From assembly GCA_049511095.1 (NCBI GenBank), contig JBEKYJ010000002.1:1-48953 (forward strand): 48,953 bases of DNA. Direction: 5' to 3'. Below the pieces are notes generated by a model that was not told the origin of the DNA, made no database searches, and was given only the letters and a program-made list of their open reading frames with translations. A program made the translations under genes and the position numbers. Positions 4,053-31,537 of the stretch are shown in pieces; the stretch's first letter is position 1, and every line of letters starts with the position of its first letter. Origin of the DNA: Verrucomicrobiia bacterium. Its GTDB lineage: Bacteria; Verrucomicrobiota; Verrucomicrobiia; Palsa-1439.

Positions 4053-6812
4053 CTACGCCAAAGCTCTGACCACTTCCGCGCACCGCCCGCACAACCCCGG
4101 ATGCGCCGGATCCCTGCCCACATCCTCCGTCCAGCGCCAACAACGTACGCACTTCTTCCCCGCCGCCGGGCTTACTCGGACGCGCAACTCACTCCCTGTC
4201 GGTCGCGCGACCCGAACCTGCGACACAATCAACACCGTTTCCAGTGTCGGCCCGAGCTTCTCAAGCAACTCGCGCGTCGCCTCGTTGTCCGGCTCAATTT
4301 CCACCTGCGCTTCCAGCGATTTGCCAATCGTCTTGGCCTGCCGCGCCTTCTCCAGCTCCAGCGACGCCACGCGGCGCACGTCCAACAAACGCTCCCAGCG
4401 CTTTTCCAGTTCCATCTCGCGCCGCTTCGCGTCGGCCACGGGAAACTTCGCCAGATGCACCGACTCCGTCTCGCGGCCCGGCAGGAAGCTCCACACTTCG
4501 TCCGCCGTAAACGGCATCACGGGCGCGATCAACTTCGCCAAAGTCGCCACCGTGTCGAAAATCGCCGTCTGCGCCGAGCGCCGTTCCGCCGAATTGGCCG
4601 CAAGCGTATACAACGGGTCTTTCATTACGTCAACGTAAAATGACGAGATTTCCACCGCGCAAAACGCGTTCACCAAATGGTACACGCGATGGAACTCCAG
4701 GTTCTCGTACGCCTCCGTCAAATCCGCCACCAGCGCCTGCAAACGCGACAGCAACCAGCGGTCGATCTCCGCCAGTTTCTCGTGCGGCACGCCGTGCTTC
4801 GCCGGGTCAAAATCATGGAGGTTCGCCAGCAGGATGCGCAATGTGTTGCGAATCTTGCGATACGTCTCCGAGATGCGTTCGAAAATCTCCTCCGAGAGCG
4901 GCACGTCGGCCTGATAGTCTTCCGAGATGACCCACAACCGCAGCACGTCCGCCCCGAAACGCTTCACGTAGTCCTCGGAATTCGCCGGCTTGCCCGCCGA
5001 CTTCGAAATCTTCTGTTTCTTGCCGGTCTCCTCGGCCTGCATCACAAGGAACCCGTGCGTCGCCACGCTTCTATACGGCGCGCGCTTCTCCGTCGCCATC
5101 GCCGTGAGCAGGGATGATTGAAACCAGCCGCGATGCTGGTCGCTCCCCTCAAAATAAACGTCCGCGGGATACGCCAGTTCCGGCCGCGTTCTCAACACGG
5201 CCCGATGGCTCACGCCCGACTCAAACCACACGTCCACGATATCGGGGCTTTTCTCCAGATTCTTCGAGCCGCACGACGGGCATTTCACGTCGCCAAACAA
5301 CTCCGCCACGTCGCGCTCAAACCAGATATCGACGCCCTCCTTCACCACCTTCTCGCGGAACTTTAAGATGAGCGAGCGGTCGAGTATCGACTTCTCACAA
5401 TCGCGGCATTCCAGAAAGGGCAACGGCACGCCCCAGGCCCGTTGCCGCGAAATGCACCAATCGCGCCGCTGTTCGATCGTGCCCGTGATGCGGTTCTCAC
5501 CCCACTTCGGCACCCACTTCACCTTGCGCACTTCGTCGAGCGCGTTCTTCCGCAGGTCGCGATGGTCGAGCGCGATGAACCACTGCTCCATCGCCCGGAA
5601 GATGATCGGGTTCTTGCACCGCCAGCAATGCGGATACGAATGCTTCACCTCGGCGTGTCCCGCCAGCGCGTCAATCGCCCGCAAGTGCTCGACGATGGAC
5701 TTGTTCGCCTTGAAAACGTATTGCCCCGCGAACTGGCCCGCGTCTTTCGTGAACACTCCCCCGTCATCCACCGGCGCGAGCGTTTCGAGTCCGTACTTCT
5801 GGCCGATCTCGTAGTCTTCTGCGCCGTGGCCGGGTGCCGTGTGAACCAACCCCGTGCCCTGCTCCAACGTCACGTAGGGCGACAACACAACGGGGGAATC
5901 ACGGTCCATAAACGGATGCCGGGTAATCAGCCCTTCCAGTTCGCTGCCGGGAAGCTTCTGTTGCACGGCCAACTCGACGCCGCACGCCTGCGCGACCTGC
6001 CCGACGAGTCCCTCGGCGAGAATCCACGTCTCACCAGTCGTTGTCTTCGCGCGCACATACGTCAAATCGGGCTTGACCGCGATCGCGAGGTTCGCGGGCA
6101 GCGTCCACGGCGTCGTGGTCCAGATGACCGCGAATTCCCTGTCGCGGCCTTTCACGGGAAACTTCACGTACACGCTGGGTGAAGCATGGTCGGCGTATTC
6201 GACCTCCGCCTCCGCCAGCGCCGTGCGGCACGTCGCGCACCAGTACACAGGCTTCTTGCCGCGGTAGACGAAGCCGTCGCCCACCATGTCGGCCAGCGCC
6301 CCGATGATTTCCGCTTCATACGTCGGGCTCATCGTGAGGTAGGGATGCTCCCAGTCGCCAAACACGCCGAGCCGCTTGAATTGCTGGCGTTGGATGCCGA
6401 CGTATTTCTCGGCAGTCGCCCGGCAGATTCTGCGAAGCTCCGACTGCGAAATTGTTTTCGCTTTGTCGCCGAGGTCCTTCTTCACCTTGTACTCGATGGG
6501 CTGGCCGTGGCAGTCCCACCCCGGCACGTACGGCGCGCGAAACCCGCGCATCGTCTTGTATTTGACGACCACGTCCTTGAGGATTTTGTTGAGCGCCGTG
6601 CCGATGTGCACGTCGCCGTTGGCGAACGGCGGGCCATCGTGCAGGACGAAAAGCGGCCCTTCGTGCCGTAACGTCTGGATCTTTTCGTAAAGCTTGGCCT
6701 GCTCCCAACGCGCCAGCATCTCCGGCTCCCGCTGCGGCAGGTTGGCCTTCATCGGGAAGTCCGTCTGCGGAAGATTCAGCGTCTCTTTGTAATTGGCCTG
6801 CGGTTCCGACAT
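4053..6812 (-). CDS. ileS: Isoleucine--tRNA ligase (type 1, C-terminal Zn finger)
   Basis: HDGPPFANG, GWDCHG, WTTTPWTLPAN, DWCISRQRAWG, EGSDQHRGWF, KCVRCW...LCGRC. Confidence 0.98.
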   Translation of the reverse strand: MSEPQANYKETLNLPQTDFPMKANLPQREPEMLARWEQAKLYEKIQTLRHEGPLFVLHDGPPFANGDVHIGTALNKILKDVVVKYKTMRGFRAPYVPGWDCHGQPIEYKVKKDLGDKAKTISQSELRRICRATAEKYVGIQRQQFKRLGVFGDWEHPYLTMSPTYEAEIIGALADMVGDGFVYRGKKPVYWCATCRTALAEAEVEYADHASPSVYVKFPVKGRDREFAVIWTTTPWTLPANLAIAVKPDLTYVRAKTTTGETWILAEGLVGQVAQACGVELAVQQKLPGSELEGLITRHPFMDRDSPVVLSPYVTLEQGTGLVHTAPGHGAEDYEIGQKYGLETLAPVDDGGVFTKDAGQFAGQYVFKANKSIVEHLRAIDALAGHAEVKHSYPHCWRCKNPIIFRAMEQWFIALDHRDLRKNALDEVRKVKWVPKWGENRITGTIEQRRDWCISRQRAWGVPLPFLECRDCEKSILDRSLILKFREKVVKEGVDIWFERDVAELFGDVKCPSCGSKNLEKSPDIVDVWFESGVSHRAVLRTRPELAYPADVYFEGSDQHRGWFQSSLLTAMATEKRAPYRSVATHGFLVMQAEETGKKQKISKSAGKPANSEDYVKRFGADVLRLWVISEDYQADVPLSEEIFERISETYRKIRNTLRILLANLHDFDPAKHGVPHEKLAEIDRWLLSRLQALVADLTEAYENLEFHRVYHLVNAFCAVEISSFYVDVMKDPLYTLAANSAERRSAQTAIFDTVATLAKLIAPVMPFTADEVWSFLPGRETESVHLAKFPVADAKRREMELEKRWERLLDVRRVASLELEKARQAKTIGKSLEAQVEIEPDNEATRELLEKLGPTLETVLIVSQVRVARPTGSELRVRVSPAAGKKCVRCWRWTEDVGRDPAHPGLCGRCAEVVRALA

Positions 6813-6836
6813 GATTGCCTTGTCAAAAAGCGGGCA

Positions 6837-6865
6837 AAAGTATCACGCATGCCCGGGGGTGTCAA
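6837..6865 (-). promoter_or_regulatory. Putative ileS sigma70 promoter
   Basis: TTGACA-17 nt-TACTTT about 25 nt upstream of the ileS ATG. Confidence 0.55.
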
Positions 6866-7197
6866 CGGCACGCCAATTGATGTTGTAGCCACGCCGCCTG
6901 CTCGCGTGCCGTTTACGGAGCTCTGCCGGCGTGTTCGTCCGCCGTTTGCTTCCGTCCGTGATTGTAGGGCGCGATGCCTGTCGTGTAGGTATCGCGCCGT
7001 TTCGAACCCATCCGTCGCCCCACCATGTAGCCACGGCTTGCCCCGCCTTCCCCCCAACGCTCCAACATTCACCACGTTTTACGTGGCTCCAGCACTCCAA
7101 CACTCCCCCCTGTCTTCTGCCCTTTTTGGCTTCCTTTGTACATAAAACCACCCTCCCGGAGCGGTATTTTGGTACTTTTTTCCCCATTTTTTCCTCT

Positions 7198-7288
7198 TTT
7201 TTGCAAAACGAACCCAACTCTGTTTTTTTCATAACTGTTTCATGTCGCGACACATACGCATTTTTCAGTTGGGTTCGTTTGGTAAAAA
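7198..7288. repeat. 22-bp imperfect inverted repeat (tttttgcaaaacgaacccaact / agttgggttcgtttggtaaaaa) with 47-nt spacer, copy 1
   Basis: Read directly; the same arms and spacer length occur at 28095-28185. Confidence 0.9.
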
Positions 7289-7552
7289 AGTACTTTATAT
7301 AGAGAACTCCCCTGCCAACCGACCCCAAAGATGTAGTAGCGGCCTGCTCGCGTGTTGTGTACGGAGCCGTCTCGGCCGCCCTGCAGACGCGCTTCTGTGA
7401 GCCGAGTCCGGTGCCTGGTGTAGCCACGGCTCTGCGAGCCGTGCTGGGTTCACCGGCAAGTCGTCATAGCGTGGGAAGCCGAGCGGGCGCGAGCGACCGC
7501 AACCGAACCGGCCGTCCAGCCTTCGTAGCCGACGACACGCCCAACCCGTCCT

Positions 7553-7623
7553 TTTTCAAAGAACTGTCAGTCATTATACCCGCCTGGCAACACCGTGTCC
7601 AGCAAAAATATCAATTTTCGATA
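7553..7623 (-). promoter_or_regulatory. sigma70 promoter with upstream palindrome and downstream boxA-like motif, copy 1
   Basis: TGGACA(7601-7596)-17-TATAAT(7578-7573), then GTTCTTTGAAAA (7564-7553). Conserved at 28335-28404. Confidence 0.65.
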
Positions 7624-8289
7624 GCCGAGTCCGACCAGACGCCGCACGCCGTACTCCCGCGGCAATCGCCGCCATCCCCTCCTCGGAGGGGAACAAGGGG
7701 TGGGTGCGCCCGCATTCGTTACCCTCGGTACCTTGTAGCCACGCCGCCTGCTCGCGTGCCGTTTACGGAGCTCTGTCGGCGTGTTTGCCTGCCGTCGTCC
7801 CCCCCCTGTAGCGGCGGTCTACGACCGTCGAGCCTGTTGCAGCCGCGCTCGCCAACCGCGGGCCGTTTCTGATGTAGCGTGGGAAGCCGAGTCCTCGAGA
7901 CGCCGCAACTCCTTTCCCGCGGCAATCCCCAGCCCATCCGGGTAGTCGTTGTAGGGCGGGATGCCTGTCGTTTAGGTATCCCGCCGCTGTCGTTGGCATG
8001 GCGCGCCTGCTCGCGAATCCTTTTCGGGGCCCGACCGCGCACTCCGGCCGACCGAAGGTCTCCTCTGTCGCCGTGCCAACCCTGCCCCGCTACGCCGAGC
8101 AATGAGACGCCGCCCGCCGATTTCCCGACCGCCTCGCACGACTGATTTGCCGAACGCCATGGCGAAGCAGAATCGGCATTGACTGTGCGTGGGGAAACCC
8201 TACCATTGCGTCCGCGATGCGGAACGGAACGCAACGCGGCGACAGATTCGGAGTACGCATGACGGCGGCTGGTGCGCCGCGCCAGCCAA

Positions 8290-8580
8290 CGCTCCAACTC
8301 AAAGGCTGGACGGCGGCCGAGACCACGGCCTTTGTCGCCGCGCGCGGGAATTTCGGCACCGTCGAGCAGGCGCAATCAGCCGCCAAAGGCGGGGCGAAAG
8401 TGACCACCACCGCGAAGAATGCGGACCCCGCCGACCTGCAATGGCCGGCGACCGACCCCGGCAACGCCGGCCTCCGCGACCAATTCCGGCTGAACACCTT
8501 TCCACCCGCCGGTGGCAACAGCGCACCGCCGACCCTGCAGCAATTCGAAGCGTCGTTGTACACCACAACCATCAACCCCA
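8290..8580 (+). pseudogene. Probable C-terminal remnant of an unknown protein gene
   Basis: Frame of ORF 8217-8705 has GC3-rich coding-like codons (LQLKGWTAAETTAF...LYTTTINP) but no convincing start. Confidence 0.35.
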
Positions 8581-8628
8581 AACACTCTCAAATTCGCCGC
8601 TTGATTCACGGCGGGCACTACACCCTTT

Positions 8629-26217: not shown

Positions 26218-27300
26218 ATGAGCATGCCCCATATAAAGTTGTTTATCCCTGGCCCCGTGGAGGTTAGCGATGACACGTTCCAAGCAATGAGCCAGCCCAT
26301 GATTGGGCACCGTGGATCGGGATTCCAAGACCTGTATGCGGCAATTCAGCCCAAGCTGCAAAAAATCCTCTACACGAAGAATCCCGTTTTCATTTCCACG
26401 TCGTCGGCTTGGGGCGTGATGGAAGCATCCGTGCGCAATCTCGTCGCCAAGAAGGTGCTCAACTGTTGCTGCGGGGCGTTCTCCGATAAGTGGTTCGACG
26501 TGAGCCAACGTTGCGGGAAGCAGGCCGAGGCGCTCAAAGTCGAATGGGGTCAACCCATCCTTCCCGAAATGATCGACGCCAAACTGAAGACCGGGCAGTT
26601 CGATGTCGTCACCGTCGTGCACAATGAAACCTCGACGGGCCTGATGAATCCGTTGCCGGAAATCGCCCAGGTGATGAAGAAGTATCCCGATGTGATGTTC
26701 GTCGTCGACACGGTCAGTTCGATGACCGCCCTGAAGATCGACACCGATGCGCTCGGGATCGACGTCATCCTCGCCGGCACGCAGAAAGCCTGGGCGCTGC
26801 CGCCGGGAACCGCCGTGTTCGCCGTGAGCGAGCGCGCTCTGAAGCTGGCCGGGACGATTCCCGGCCGCGGCTACTATTTCGATTTCCTCGAGTTCAAGGC
26901 GAACCACGACAAGAACATGACGCCATCCACACCGAGCATTCCGCACATTTACGGACTCAAGTTCAAGCTCGACCAGTTCGAGAAGGAAGGGCTGGAGAAT
27001 CGCTACGCGCGCCACCTCAAGATGGCACAGAAGACCCGCGAATGGGCCAAATCGCGCGGGTTCGAGTTGTTCCCGAAATCCGGCTACGAATCCGTCACGC
27101 TCACGTGCGTGAAGAACAACAAGAATATCGACGTCGCCAAGTTGCAAAAGACGCTCAAGGACAAATACAAGGTCCTCATCGATGGCGGCTACGGCCCGAT
27201 CAAAGGCAAGAGTTTCCGTCTCGCTCATATGGGCGATGAGACCCTCGACACCGTCTCGCAACTGCACGCGATGCTCGATGATTGCTTGAAGTCGTTGTGA
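26218..27300 (+). CDS. Class V PLP aminotransferase (serine-pyruvate / alanine-glyoxylate type)
   Basis: FIPGPV, HNETSTG, VDTVSS, GTQKAWALPPG, FRLAHMG. Confidence 0.92.
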   Translation: MSMPHIKLFIPGPVEVSDDTFQAMSQPMIGHRGSGFQDLYAAIQPKLQKILYTKNPVFISTSSAWGVMEASVRNLVAKKVLNCCCGAFSDKWFDVSQRCGKQAEALKVEWGQPILPEMIDAKLKTGQFDVVTVVHNETSTGLMNPLPEIAQVMKKYPDVMFVVDTVSSMTALKIDTDALGIDVILAGTQKAWALPPGTAVFAVSERALKLAGTIPGRGYYFDFLEFKANHDKNMTPSTPSIPHIYGLKFKLDQFEKEGLENRYARHLKMAQKTREWAKSRGFELFPKSGYESVTLTCVKNNKNIDVAKLQKTLKDKYKVLIDGGYGPIKGKSFRLAHMGDETLDTVSQLHAMLDDCLKSL

Positions 27301-27809
27301 AGATCACGAAGAAAGCCGTGCTCGACGCCGTCGCATCCTTGATGCGGCGGCGTTTCAATGTTGTAGCCGAACGCGACAAGCAGTTCGTCTGGGGCGATGC
27401 GACGATCCTGGCCGATCTCTACTTCCCCGCCCCGCTCCATTGCATCGTGCAATTTGATGACGCGCCGCATTGCACGCGCGAACGAGCTGCGACGTTCGCC
27501 AGCTATCCATCCGACGCACCCTTGAATTTCGATGTGCGCCGCTATCTCGCCGACCAGGCGAACGGCGATGCCGGCCTCGCGCAAGCTGACATGCTCGCTG
27601 ACTTGCTTCCGCCCAAACGCGGTTTCAATCCAACCATCCGCATCCGTGCCGACGAGATTGAGGAATTGACCGGGCCGATTTCGGACCGCATCGAGTCTCT
27701 GTTTGCGAAGCGCTTCGCCCTTCACGGCGGTACCGCCTTTCATCTGATGGTGGACAACGCCGGCGCCAAGCCGCATTCGCAAACGATGCACCGGGGCGTG
27801 TCGGATTAG
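27297..27809 (+). CDS. Hypothetical protein, possibly a degenerate PD-(D/E)xK/Vsr-like nuclease fold
   Basis: GTGA overlap with the aminotransferase stop; DLYFP...IVQFDD.PH...R...YP...L.FD pattern. Confidence 0.6.
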   Translation: MKITKKAVLDAVASLMRRRFNVVAERDKQFVWGDATILADLYFPAPLHCIVQFDDAPHCTRERAATFASYPSDAPLNFDVRRYLADQANGDAGLAQADMLADLLPPKRGFNPTIRIRADEIEELTGPISDRIESLFAKRFALHGGTAFHLMVDNAGAKPHSQTMHRGVSD

Positions 27810-28094
27810 ACTCAGGTCAATGATTTCCAATCTCCAATCTCCAATCCAGTTTTCCCTCCTGCCCTCGTGTAGTAGCGGCTGTCCCAGCCGCCTTGCCTCC
27901 CCGGTGTAGCCACGCCTCTGCGAGGCGTGTCCGCCGCCTGCCTTCCGTCTCGAGGCGTCGCGCCTCCCCCGAATCTTCACCACGTTTTACGTGGCTTTTC
28001 GGGGCTGAATTCCGTCCCCCTTTTGTCTTCATTCCTCCGCAAAACCACCCCTCCCGGCGCTGTTTTCCACCATTTATTCCCTGTTTTTTTCCTC

Positions 28095-28185
28095 TTTTTG
28101 CAAAACGAACCCAACTCGTATTTTTCCCCAACATCTTCATTTCAAAATACTTCCACATTTTTCAGTTGGGTTCGTTTGGTAAAAA
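28095..28185. repeat. 22-bp inverted repeat with 47-nt spacer, copy 2
   Basis: Arms identical to 7198-7288; spacer 28117-28163 is divergent in sequence. Confidence 0.9.
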
Positions 28186-28334
28186 CCACCTCTTTTTGGA
28201 AAGTTCCATGCCAACCGTCCTCCGGTGCAGCGTCGGCTGTCCCCAGCCGATCCGCCGACCCACGATTCTCTGTCTCTCTGAGGTCTCAAATCTCCGATCT
28301 GCAATTCCCCCCGTCTCTGTACGCCGTCCGTCCT

Positions 28335-28404
28335 ATGTCAAACAACTATCGCCCCTATACCACCGCCGCAACACCGTGTCCAGCACAAATATCGATTCTC
28401 GATA
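28335..28404 (-). promoter_or_regulatory. sigma70-like promoter, boxA-like motif and TATCGA-N3-TCGATA palindrome, copy 2
   Basis: TGGACA(28382-28377)-17-TATAGG(28359-28354), then GTTGTTTGACAT. Confidence 0.55.
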
Positions 28405-29284
28405 ATCAGTCTTTCTTGATTTGTAGGGTAAGCGCCCCGGCCTGCCGTCATTTCCCCGGTAGGGCGCGGTGGCCCACCGCGCCGTGTTCGCCTGCCGTTT
28501 CCCCCTGTTGCCGCGGGCGCTGACCGCGGTCCTCGTCCCTCATGTTGTAGCCACGGCGCTCTGTCGCCGTGCCGAAGTGGTGTAGCCACGGCTCTGCGAG
28601 CCGTGCCGGGTTCGGTGTAACGTGGGCCTGCTCGCGTGTCGTTTACGGAGCTGTCCCCAGCCCATCCGGATCGTCGGTGTAGTAGCGGCCGTCCCTGGCC
28701 GCCTCCGCTCCGTCTCCTCGTCGTTGGCCTGCCCGCGATTCCTAATCGGGGTAGGGCGGGCTGGCTCAGCCCGCCGCTCTGCTTTGTAGGCCGCGTGCCC
28801 TCACGCGGCGTAACCCGTGTCGTCGGTAGGGCGCGGCGGCCCGCCGCACGCGTCGTCCGCTCCGCTCCGCGCTGTCTCCGAATTGTAGGCTCGCCCGCCT
28901 TTGGCGGGACAACGGGACCCGTTGTCGCTGTCGCAGGTACGCGCTCCCGCTCTTGTAGCCACGCCGCCTGCTCGCGTGGTTTACCACGTTCTACGTGGCG
29001 TTTACGGAGCTCTGTCGGCGTGTTCACCTGCCAACCGAGACACAGCTGCGCAGATGGATCGTCTTGGGCTGCACGCGTTGAACTCCGCTACTCGTAGTAA
29101 CCCCGCGGTTCGCCCGCCGCATTTCACCCACACTCTCCAACTGCGCTTCACGCCACGACCAAGAACTACCACTCAAACTGTTTAGCCTGTGTCCTCGCTT
29201 TGGATGATCTGCAAACCTTGCGATTCACTGGCCAGGTTGTTATGCTTGCACGATGTGACAACGCCAGACAATCCGCCCGAGAAC

Positions 29285-29710
29285 ATGCTAAGTCCCAAGA
29301 AAGGCGATAGGCACTTTGATGACCGTGGCAAACGGACTTTCAAGCAGGATATTCTCCTTGCCATTTCCACGGTGGTAATCGCCGGGATCATTTCCTTCGT
29401 CGTTTCCTTTTTTGGGATGATGTACCAACTGCGACAAGCGAGGCAACGCGACATCTACCAAGCCAAAGAGCAAATCTTTAGAGACTTTGTCAAAGCCAGT
29501 GCAAATTGGCGCGAGGCTGTAAAGGAAAAAACTACCCTTAAGCTTAAGTACGATCTAGATCAGTTCTTCGCGGAATTGAACACTATAGTCCCAGCTATCC
29601 TGAGCATCCCCAATTTGCCCCCGAACCTGTCAATAATGCCCTCCAATACACCTACTGTGGCGATCCTTCGCGCGAGGAATCGGGGTCACATCTTTGCATT
29701 TTGCAATTGA
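29285..29710 (+). CDS. Hypothetical single-TM protein (cargo gene), possibly 3'-truncated
   Basis: AT-richer ORF with TM segment ILLAISTVVIAGIISFVVSFFGMM followed by a helical region; start uncertain. Confidence 0.5.
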   Translation: MLSPKKGDRHFDDRGKRTFKQDILLAISTVVIAGIISFVVSFFGMMYQLRQARQRDIYQAKEQIFRDFVKASANWREAVKEKTTLKLKYDLDQFFAELNTIVPAILSIPNLPPNLSIMPSNTPTVAILRARNRGHIFAFCN

Positions 29711-30720
29711 CGGAATGAATTGGAATTGGGGGCGCGTCTAATCATTGTAACAATTATCTAAGCAGTCACCGCCCTCCACTTTCCAACTGCCTGCGCGGCC
29801 ACTCTTTTCCAATCTGCCCTCGCTCCGAGTTTCGCACTTCGGATTTGTTTCGGATTTCGAGATTCGTGTTTCGTGCTTCGCAGCGCCACTTGCCACTCTT
29901 TTCCAATCTGCCCCCTCGCCTTCCGCCTCCTGTCTCTTGCTCCTGCTCTTGCTCCAACGCTCCACCACCCTGAAGAAGGGGTCAGTTCGTTTTTCGTTAT
30001 CATACTGAGTCGAGCGTGCGCCACGTTCGCGGCAGCCTCTTGTCACACGACGACCCGTCGCTTGCCATGATATGCTCCAGTGGAGAGTATCATCTGCGGG
30101 GCAACGCTTTACCCCTTACACTTCTCTGAGATCAACTCTCCACCCGCCACACCCTGCAGCGGTTATAGCCGAACGCGGCACAAGCTGCGTAAGCCGAGTC
30201 AGACGAGACGCCGCACGTCGTACTCCCGCGGCAAACCCGCGATGTTGTTTTCACGGCAAATAGTGCTATCCATAAACTTACAGAACGCCCGGGCTCACAT
30301 CTCTGCTTTCGGGGATTGTCGCGACCGCCTGTAGCAATCGGCGTCACCGCGAAAACGGACAGCGAGTTTGTGTTGAATCGTCCCCTCAACGATTCAACAC
30401 AGCCTCCACCCTCTGCGTCCTCTGTGCCTTTTACCCCGATTCCTTATCGGGGCTGCGTGAGGCAATCCTTCCTCTTCGTGCCTTCGTGGTGAACCTCCGC
30501 CCCGCCTTTGCGTCCCTTGCGTCGCTTGTGCCTTTTTGTGGCAAAACTCTTGCCCGCTTCGTGTTCTTCGTGCCTTTGTGGCAACCCTCCGCACCCCGTC
30601 CTCACGAGGCAACCTCGTGCTGCATCGGCCTCTCAGCGATGCAGCACAGACGGATTCCAACCTCTGCGCCCCTGCCATCCGCGTCCATCCGTGTGGATCT
30701 GTGGCTACGCTTCGTGTCTT
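29680..30720 (+). repeat. Cluster of short tandem and simple repeats plus right-hand module copy 2
   Basis: ggggtca motifs (~29682, ~29977); ccactcttttccaatctgccc x2 (~29799, ~29894); tttcg-type heptamers 29830-29880; module 30102-30276; nonamer-period repeats 30411-30706. Confidence 0.8.
30369..30401. terminator. Strong hairpin, possible terminator
   Basis: tgtgttgaatcgt-cccctca-acgattcaacaca, 13-bp perfect stem; no clear U-tract. Confidence 0.35.
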
Positions 30721-30755
30721 GGCTTCTCCATCTGGTCGCGCAATTCTAGGCTGAG

Positions 30756-31020
30756 CTATACTACCGCCGCTTCCAGCGAAAGCACGGGTGGCAGGTGCGC
30801 GGCGAGTAGCTCCCACTTGTCGCCGCCGTTGCGTGAATAGAAAATCTCACCGCTGATCGTGCCCACGTAAATGCCTGCCTCGTCACATCTGTCCGCGGTC
30901 GCGGCCTGACGAAGGGTCTGCGTATAGCAATTCTTTTGCGGCAGGCCCCGCGTCAGCGCCTGCCATGACCGGCCCCCGTTCCGCGACCGCCATACGGTCA
31001 ACTTCGCGTCGCACACGTAC
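30756..31020 (-). pseudogene. 3' fragment of a BNR/Asp-box (sialidase-like) repeat protein gene, copy 1
   Basis: WRSRNGGRSW...GLPQ...FYSRNGGDKW...HLPPVLSLEAAVV*; no N-terminal part. Confidence 0.75.
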
Positions 31021-31229
31021 CGCCGCTCCTGTTGTGAAACCTGAACGCCCCCGAACACGGTTTACGAAACCCATTCATCTTGAGCCAACCCGGGAAGCCC
31101 CGAATTTGTTGGACAGGAGGATTGACTTAGTGATAGTTATTCACAGTGGTGAGGGGGAGGTAGCCAAGACGCTCGCCAGCCCAGTTTCGGGTTCGAGTCG
31201 GCGCGAGAATGGACTCGAATCATGGTTCC

Positions 31230-31263
31230 GTCATCACGGGCGTGTCCGGTACCGAACGCTTAC
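31230..31263. mobile_element. Possible IS66-type terminal inverted repeat remnant
   Basis: ...ccgaacgcttac reads GTAAGCGTTCGG on the minus strand; IS66 ends begin GTAA. Confidence 0.3.
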
Positions 31264-31537
31264 CGAAGTCCTGTAGCCTCTTACCTGACCCAAGCTCGCA
31301 ACGAGTGCGCCGTCAGCGCTCGTCACCCAGTTGTCCGTCCTCGCAATTCAACGGCGAGCCCTTCGCACGCGAGGAAAACACCCTCGCGAAGAAGCGGCGC
31401 GTTTCGTTCATTGCCTTCGGCCGCCTGCAATTCGTCTTATCCTCGTACGCCCGAGCGCCGGGGATCATCAACTATCAGGAACGCATGTCACGAGGGCATC
31501 TGTTCCCGGATCACGGAGGCGCACCGTGCAGGAGAGC

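Follow-up and report, generated by a model that had tools for sequence, protein, structure and literature searches.

The region upstream of the isoleucyl-tRNA synthetase gene ileS of a Verrucomicrobiia bacterium raises a simple question: what is the role of a promoter-like site that is directly followed by a boxA-like motif and reads into DNA without an evident gene? boxA-dependent antitermination is known from rRNA operons, phage nut sites, suhB-type leaders and CRISPR arrays. An earlier note, made from the sequence alone, had proposed a multicopy antiterminated non-coding RNA. Here the window is the whole analysed stretch of 48,953 nt, contig C2 of the genome G000 (3.9 Mb, 292 contigs). The analysis points, tentatively and with slightly less than even confidence, to a mobile, self-promoted, boxA-led non-coding unit that is dispersed in several species of the genus.

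Layout and copy number of the repeated unit

The minus strand from 7623 to 7553 reads as a palindrome, then TGGACA, 17 nt and TATAAT, then the boxA-like motif GTTCTTTGAAAA (Table 1). The predicted promoter matches the consensus hexamers at 11 of 12 positions, and the consensus scan finds one such site in the region 6700-7900 versus 0.2 in shuffled sequences. The boxA-like pattern GTTSTTTGAMAW occurs twice in the window, with 0.05 occurrences expected and none of 100 shuffles reaching two. The joint pattern of promoter and boxA occurs once, versus 0.00 expected in the shuffle control. Thus direct reading and shuffle controls confirm the promoter-like sequence and boxA-like motif described in the earlier note, and direct reading finds them in both window copies. 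The AT-rich palindrome upstream of the promoter could be an UP element or an operator. Two blocks are conserved between the copies, A with the promoter and boxA and B with a hairpin, and the sequences between the blocks are unrelated. In copy 2, the 3' side of block B faces the end of a convergent ORF (27282-27809).

Table 1. Coordinates of the features of the two window copies and of the downstream gene
Feature	Position	Strand	Description
GC-rich hairpin module, copy 1	7624..7670	-	upstream of the promoter; kept in most type-I copies (alignments)
AT-rich palindrome TATCGAAAATTGATA	7609..7623	-	TATCG-N5-CGATA; centred near -51
Predicted sigma-70-type promoter	7573..7601	-	TGGACA 7601-7596, 17 nt, TATAAT 7578-7573; TGG directly before the -10
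boxA-like motif GTTCTTTGAAAA	7553..7564	-	8 nt past the -10; begins near +2 of the predicted RNA
Variable A-B spacer	7321..7552	-	filled with REP-like hairpins, GCTACA-type tails
Block B, copy 1	7124..7320	-	conserved module of ~195 nt (nhmmer)
Left arm of the B hairpin	7267..7289	-	includes AAACGAACCCAACT; core pairs invariant in 100-103/103 copies
Right arm of the B hairpin	7197..7219	-	includes AGTTGGGTTCGTTT; core pairs invariant in 100-103/103 copies
Weak terminator-like hairpin and T-run within B	7143..7165	-	7 pairs, then TTTAT
CCACGT-N4-ACGTGG palindrome	7071..7086	-	separate small repeat module, outside the conserved unit
Proximal predicted promoter of ileS	~6846-6880		TTGACA-17-GATACT upstream of the start codon
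ileS (isoleucyl-tRNA synthetase)	4053..6812	-	Pfam tRNA-synt_1, E = 8e-124; downstream of copy 1 and co-oriented with it
Block A, copy 2	28335..28404	-	palindrome TATCGAGAATCGATA 28404-28390; TGGACA 28382-28377; 17 nt; TATAGG 28359-28354; GTTGTTTGACAT 28346-28335
Block B, copy 2	28023..28216	-	hairpin with flanks 28187-28093

No credible ORF was said to follow the promoter, and this holds: the codon-usage caller accepts none of the ORFs listed over 6813-8628, and block B contains no frame-consistent ORF. A coding role of B on the opposite strand was considered and rejected. This strand is often stop-free (median 67 codons versus 53 in shuffles), but the open frame is inconsistent relative to the motif. 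A sigma-54 reading of the promoter was set aside: TGGACG-N5-TTGC has the GG-N10-GC spacing, but roughly one copy in four, judged by eye, has another sequence in place of TTGC.

The repeat is indeed multicopy, as had been claimed, but the number of copies is not two: nhmmer profiles retrieve 56 copies of block A in G000. Each is followed by block B on the same strand, at a gap of 33 to 358 nt, and no A copy lacks B. Of 72 full-length B copies (nhmmer), 51 lie behind an A and 21 have no A. The A-B unit spans approximately 400-800 bp. Nearly all copies are intergenic, as only 11 of 75 overlap a call of the crude codon-usage gene caller.

Block A is uniform in its layout. The boxA core GTT[C/G]TTTGA is present in 55/56 copies, and the palindrome in 53/56. 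The complete arrangement of -35, 17-nt spacer, -10, gap of 7-8 nt and boxA is also found in 53/56, and the same promoter-to-boxA pattern occurs in 10 of the 17 other genomes of the genus; loss of promoter and boxA from most copies, named in the earlier note as the outcome that would speak against it, is therefore not what is seen. In all 53 parsed copies the distance between -35 and -10 is 17 nt; the gap between -10 and boxA is 7 nt in 48 of them and 8 nt in five. The -35 box is TGGACG or TGGACA in 52/53, while the -10 box varies past the first TA, with the final T present in 32/53. The 12-nt boxA pattern has 55 matches across the genome, and 46 of them fall in A copies. In some copies boxA lies within a small palindrome. 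The copy on C217 has an upstream GC-rich stem of a different sequence, which is nevertheless self-complementary.

Copy 1 lies upstream of ileS in the same orientation, as would be expected of an ordinary promoter of this single gene with a long leader. This explanation, or that of a chance match, is highly improbable. The 56 copies are adjacent to unrelated genes, copy 2 faces a convergent ORF, and the shuffle controls give 0.00 to 0.05 expected occurrences. Further, ileS has its own conserved promoter: the proximal site is found in all six aligned genomes of the genus, including two without the element, and it is exact in five, G017 having GATAGT.

The unit is embedded among other small repeats. 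Short GC-rich REP-like hairpins with GCTACA-, CCTACA- and GCTACTACA-type tails are very abundant in intergenic regions (7400-7440, 6900-6960 and 7740-7790 in the window, and many other loci), with insertions both within the A-B spacers and in the surroundings of the elements. In this respect the unit resembles REP and BIME sequences, palindromes scattered between genes in company with other small repeats. However, the A-B unit is far longer, and it has the promoter architecture and a hairpin with a loop of 45-75 nt. The palindrome CCACGT-N4-ACGTGG had been counted as a part of the unit, but behind B it lacks conservation in most copies, and elsewhere it occurs upstream of A. It is also found at ~27975-27992, at positions 684-706 of C250 of G000 and at other loci, in varied places inside or beside the elements, and in several copies it lies between the upstream hairpin and the palindrome of A. 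Its appearance is that of a tiny insertion module in its own right.

Around copy 2, in 27810-31330 (approximately 3.5 kb), the codon-usage caller finds almost no credible ORF. Other repeats in this region have numerous counterparts in G004 (~90% identity), and some gene-like fragments in it align to several sites in G006 and G008.

The boxA motif and its conservation

The 16S gene is absent from the G000 assembly. It is assembled in three genomes of the same genus (G004, G008, G017), and there each rrn operon contains exactly two boxA motifs. The leader boxA, invariant in the three genomes, is GTTCTTTGAAAATTG, and the boxA of the 16S-23S spacer is GTTCTTTGACAATTG. The motif GTTCTTTGAAAA of copy 1 coincides with the leader boxA of all three at 12/12 positions, so that what the earlier note had called boxA-like can be described, at the level of sequence, as a putative rrn-type boxA. 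The choice of A or C at position 10 among the copies mirrors the leader and spacer forms of the rrn boxA.

Position 4 is more variable. It is C in 18 of the 53 parsed copies, including copy 1, and G in 35; the rrn boxA does not have G there. G at this position occurs in the mycobacterial rrn boxA. A literature search for G at boxA position 4 returned unrelated primer matches only. In E. coli a C at position 4 is required, and mutants at this site are non-functional, according to a passage of PMC5725501. Compared to the gammaproteobacterial consensus GYTCTTTAANA given in the same passage (PMC5725501), GTTCTTTGAAAA has one mismatch, which is shared by the rrn boxA of the genus. The motif resembles the rrn consensus of the B. 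subtilis type ending in CUUUGAAA, which an excerpt of PMC13753749 reports to be bound by NusB. The genes for NusB and Rho are present in the genome. There is a second match to the NusB domain in G000 (C20:25620-25982), within a 528-codon frame with one in-frame TGA; this frame may be an RsmB-like gene, split or recoded.

The copies are similar to the boxA-containing leaders of rrn operons and CRISPR arrays in that the same 12-mer as in the rrn leader of the genus lies on the predicted transcript before untranslated sequence. They differ from these leaders in being a dispersed repeat with dozens of copies, in the position of boxA at about +2, and in the G at position 4 in 35/53. Also unlike these systems, no boxB or boxC partner is conserved in the copy-to-copy alignment. 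The literature search found no paper linking the Nus boxA to MITEs or to dispersed repeats of this kind. In pneumococcus the name boxA denotes one subunit of the BOX repeat.

The closest relative, G004, has flanking genes that are 89-92% identical to those of G000, and many copies occupy the same positions in both genomes. Positional orthologues were compared in seven pairs for A and 15 pairs for B, two pairs having been excluded since the flanks mismatch in site. In the seven A pairs, the boxA core has 0/56 differences versus 66/257 at the other sites of the A core (p = 7e-7), and thus boxA is the best-conserved part of block A between orthologues, as it is among the copies. Against the same background, the -35 region has 2/63 differences (p = 2e-5), the half-sites of the palindrome 4/70, and the -10 box 9/63 (p = 0.07), so that the latter is weakly constrained. 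The arms of the B hairpin have 19/435 differences versus 538/2298 in the rest of B (15 pairs). Similarly, with the B copies of G000 and G004 taken together (103), the arms deviate from the consensus at 2-4% of sites, and the remainder at 23-27%. Such contrasts could be inflated by gene conversion among the copies and by alignment bias. Still, constraint on boxA and on the base of the hairpin at many separate loci suggests that selection maintains the copies instead of leaving them to decay as junk. The arms of B are conserved equally with and without A, the 21 A-less copies included, and thus the constraint on the arms is independent of A-driven transcription.

The hairpin of block B and the predicted transcript

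Block B contains a hairpin with an invariant 9-bp base, formed by AAACGAACC paired with GGTTCGTTT, a covarying distal stem and a loop of 45-75 nt. Downstream of it are an A-rich tract as well as a weak hairpin and its T-run. RNAalifold applied to 18 hairpins from six genomes yields 14 pairs, nine of them invariant and five with compensatory double changes; in this respect the downstream inverted repeat supports the proposal of the earlier note. These compensatory changes are compatible with RNA, with single-stranded DNA and with maintenance of an inverted repeat, on either strand. Single-sided mismatches of the stem, read on the element strand, are more often A-C (132) than G-U (36). These counts, which are confounded by shared descent, lean against the element strand and do not support an RNA helix in the direction of A beyond the invariant core.

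These observations bear on the possibility that the motifs are DNA-level sites for protein binding, transposition or architecture, recognized by a transposase or a nucleoid protein, boxA being a coincidence or a relic and no functional RNA being made. The near-invariant sequence of the arms (100-103/103 in the core pairs) suggests sequence-specific recognition, and the equal conservation of the arms with and without A, as well as the excess of A-C over G-U mismatches, point the same way. So does the same 9-mer, which recurs a third time downstream in direct orientation. The loop has conserved CATGA and GTT residues, which we take to resemble an IHF-type site, as in Correia elements. On the other hand, G011 alone contains three different distal stems with the pairing kept, which would not be explained by a single sequence-specific protein. 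It is also hard to credit to chance that the boxA is identical to that of the host rrn operons at 12/12 positions, stands at a fixed 7-8 nt after a promoter-like site and has 0/56 changes between orthologues. On balance, a purely DNA-level role seems unlikely, although it retains appreciable weight.

The third arm copy has features of its own. At L130, L131, L136 and L137 (in G011, G017 and G005) it lies just after the right arm in direct orientation, and its distal sequence is that of the left arm, so that the right arm could pair with either neighbour. The right arm and the third copy at these loci form a near-perfect palindrome with a short centre, which may be an alternative RNA structure or an operator. 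A variant subfamily of B (C24, C33, C94 and C99 in G000; L044 in G004) has AAACGAAGCC in the first arm and extra nested pairs AAACGAACCC/GGGTTCGTTT. At the ileS locus G004 carries the variant B and G000 the standard one, and thus copies at one site can differ in subfamily.

The tentatively preferred reading, a mobile, self-promoted and boxA-led non-coding unit, draws on the linkage of A and B in 56/56 copies, the variable distance between them, the promoter-like conservation, the exact boxA match and the covariation in the stem, which together favour a transcribed unit including the B hairpin. In particular, the presence of B behind every A at a variable distance fits coupling through a transcript and not a fixed DNA geometry. 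The NusB and Rho genes and the signs of mobility are in keeping with this reading. Against it speak the weak constraint on the -10 box, the G at boxA position 4 in 35/53 copies, the small palindrome around boxA in some copies, the equal conservation of the arms without A, the mismatch spectrum of the stem, and the lack of A in both insertions with target duplications. In such a unit, RNA polymerase would start at A, and NusB and S10 would bind the nascent boxA, making the elongation complex resistant to Rho. Rho resistance would then allow the untranslated RNA to be completed through B, and the RNA would end at the weak terminator in B or run on into the neighbouring gene. If the boxA of the repeat works behind its own promoter, every insertion would create a Rho-resistant transcription unit. 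Mobile DNA would thereby have a novel route to rewired transcription and to an escape from polarity, and the C and G forms of boxA position 4 would be a natural series of variants for testing in a little-studied phylum. A more specific proposal is that the units are a mobile family of self-promoted non-coding RNA genes, with up to dozens of copies per genome, whose 5'-terminal boxA recruits rRNA antitermination and whose hairpin RNA acts in trans or in propagation. The unit would then be a transposable element carrying its own Nus-dependent protection from Rho; we consider this proposal rather improbable.

The weak hairpin and T-run at 7165-7143 could serve as the end of the RNA, in which case the predicted transcript would be ~425 nt in copy 1 and shorter in most others. 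The length of 400-500 nt proposed in the earlier note was a guess for copy 1 alone and does not extend to the family, given the variable A-B gap. Variants of the terminator-like hairpin fold at about -1 to -11.5 kcal/mol, their stems are weak, and alifold gives no consensus structure for the terminator region of B. A stretch of 487 nt folds slightly better than its shuffles (z = -2.2). An Rfam 15 search, suggested in the earlier note, gave no match at the gathering score in the whole window; at relaxed thresholds, only eukaryotic miRNA and lncRNA models were hit, far under their cut-offs.

Mobility, neighbouring genes and distribution

The earlier note overlooked the link of this dispersed repeat to a MITE-like transposon. 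Two insertions of ~600 bp in G004, compared with the empty sites in G000, are flanked by 8-bp target duplications, GAAAGGCT and CGCAGAAC. These insertions contain block B and lack block A, and their ends are the terminal inverted repeat (TIR) GGTACTGGTACAGTTTGG and its inverse. The TIR occurs nine times in G000, 15 times in G004 and 0-5 times in other members of the genus. Among the A-bearing copies, C250 has TIRs at both ends, and C25 and C183 at the right end. Copy 1 has none, but its orthologue in G004 keeps the right TIR, which adjoins the ileS promoter. The element is multicopy, intergenic and without coding capacity. Thus the units appear to have been spread, at least in part, by a non-autonomous TIR transposon with 8-bp target duplications. 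In the genus and in 38 further contig loci, no transposase lies between paired TIRs, and none of the ten tested ORFs neighbouring TIRs is a transposase. This failure to find an autonomous partner is weakened by the fact that metagenome-assembled genomes (MAGs) often lack IS copies.

In general design the unit is similar to Correia elements (CREE) of Neisseria, MITEAba12, BrickBuilt and QMITE1: all are multicopy, intergenic and non-autonomous, with TIRs (here at some copies), an internal sigma-70-like promoter (here predicted) and a hairpin. However, there is no sequence relationship to Correia-type MITEs, the duplication is of 8 bp, the unit is larger (~400-800 bp), and its promoter is followed by an rrn-type boxA. 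The target duplication of Correia elements is TA. Promoter-bearing MITEs form hairpin transcripts, some of which give small RNAs, according to a section of a MITE review (PMC10969869). The word antitermination does not appear in the same review (PMC10969869).

A second alternative is a portable promoter with its leader. The unit would then provide an outward, Rho-resistant promoter driving or boosting the neighbouring gene, B being merely a transcribed part of the leader. Precedents exist, since MITE-borne sigma-70-like promoters driving neighbours, e.g. those of Correia elements, are described in a section of PMC10969869. Indeed, in 34 of 48 A-bearing copies the next downstream gene is co-oriented (p = 0.0055), at a median distance of ~180 nt. 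However, this bias can be largely ascribed to enrichment in divergent intergenic regions, as in tandem regions the ratio of 13 to 6 is not significant, and the remaining 14 of the 48 are directed at a gene in convergent orientation, into its 3' end. At the ileS locus a separate promoter site is conserved in genomes with and without the element. The absence of A copies without B likewise speaks against a portable promoter. The idea of a regulon was rejected. The scan covered 19 co-oriented downstream genes, ileS in the window plus 18 taken from the first 30 loci; a Pfam match was obtained for 13, which are housekeeping genes unrelated to one another and without a common theme. A portable promoter is thus an unlikely explanation, with about the same weight as a DNA-level role.

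Three RNA runs each contained 7-8% of the sampled words. Contigs assembled from them gave short, partly fitting pieces with many loose ends, mostly over REP-like repeats and the end of ileS, and they carry no start, end or strand.

The A-B unit is not restricted to G000. A blastn search of copy 1 against 40 relatives gave strong matches in G000 and G004 only and missed diverged copies. The pattern TTGCTGGAC-N28-34-GTT[C/G]TTTGA is found in 11 of 18 genomes of the genus, with 44 matches in G000, 41 in G004, 14 in G011, six in G003, three each in G005, G007 and G017, two in G006 and one each in G008, G009 and G016. The reversed control pattern has no match in any of the 18. In distant members of the genus the spacer sequence differs, the 17-nt length being kept in one checked match of G011; the -10 box is often TATAGT, and the palindrome is kept. 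Ten loci from six other species all contain A, a spacer and the AACGAA[C/G]C motifs, and nine of the ten have the inverted pair. At the ileS locus, G005 and G017 have a diverged element in the same place, and G006 and G008 have other genes there.

A phylum-wide scan with the hairpin pattern, in a sample without other members of the genus, gave a single, chance-like match in one of 400 other genomes, versus 47 matches in G000. In G038, from another family of the same class, about ten short matches to the left arm with a T-rich lead-in occur in one genome; at L033 they form direct copies ~107 nt apart. Judging by such sequence matches, related modules may exist outside the genus.

The TIR itself has a wider distribution. 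The same 18-nt TIR delimits tiny elements whose ends are 18-218 nt apart (L092, L094, L102, L104, L109, L112, L117 and L125). They are found in MAGs of Acidobacteriota, Planctomycetota, Verrucomicrobia and Gemmatimonadaceae, and two of them lie upstream of PEPCK genes. The occurrence of these tiny elements across several phyla points to a parent IS family that is widespread among soil bacteria.
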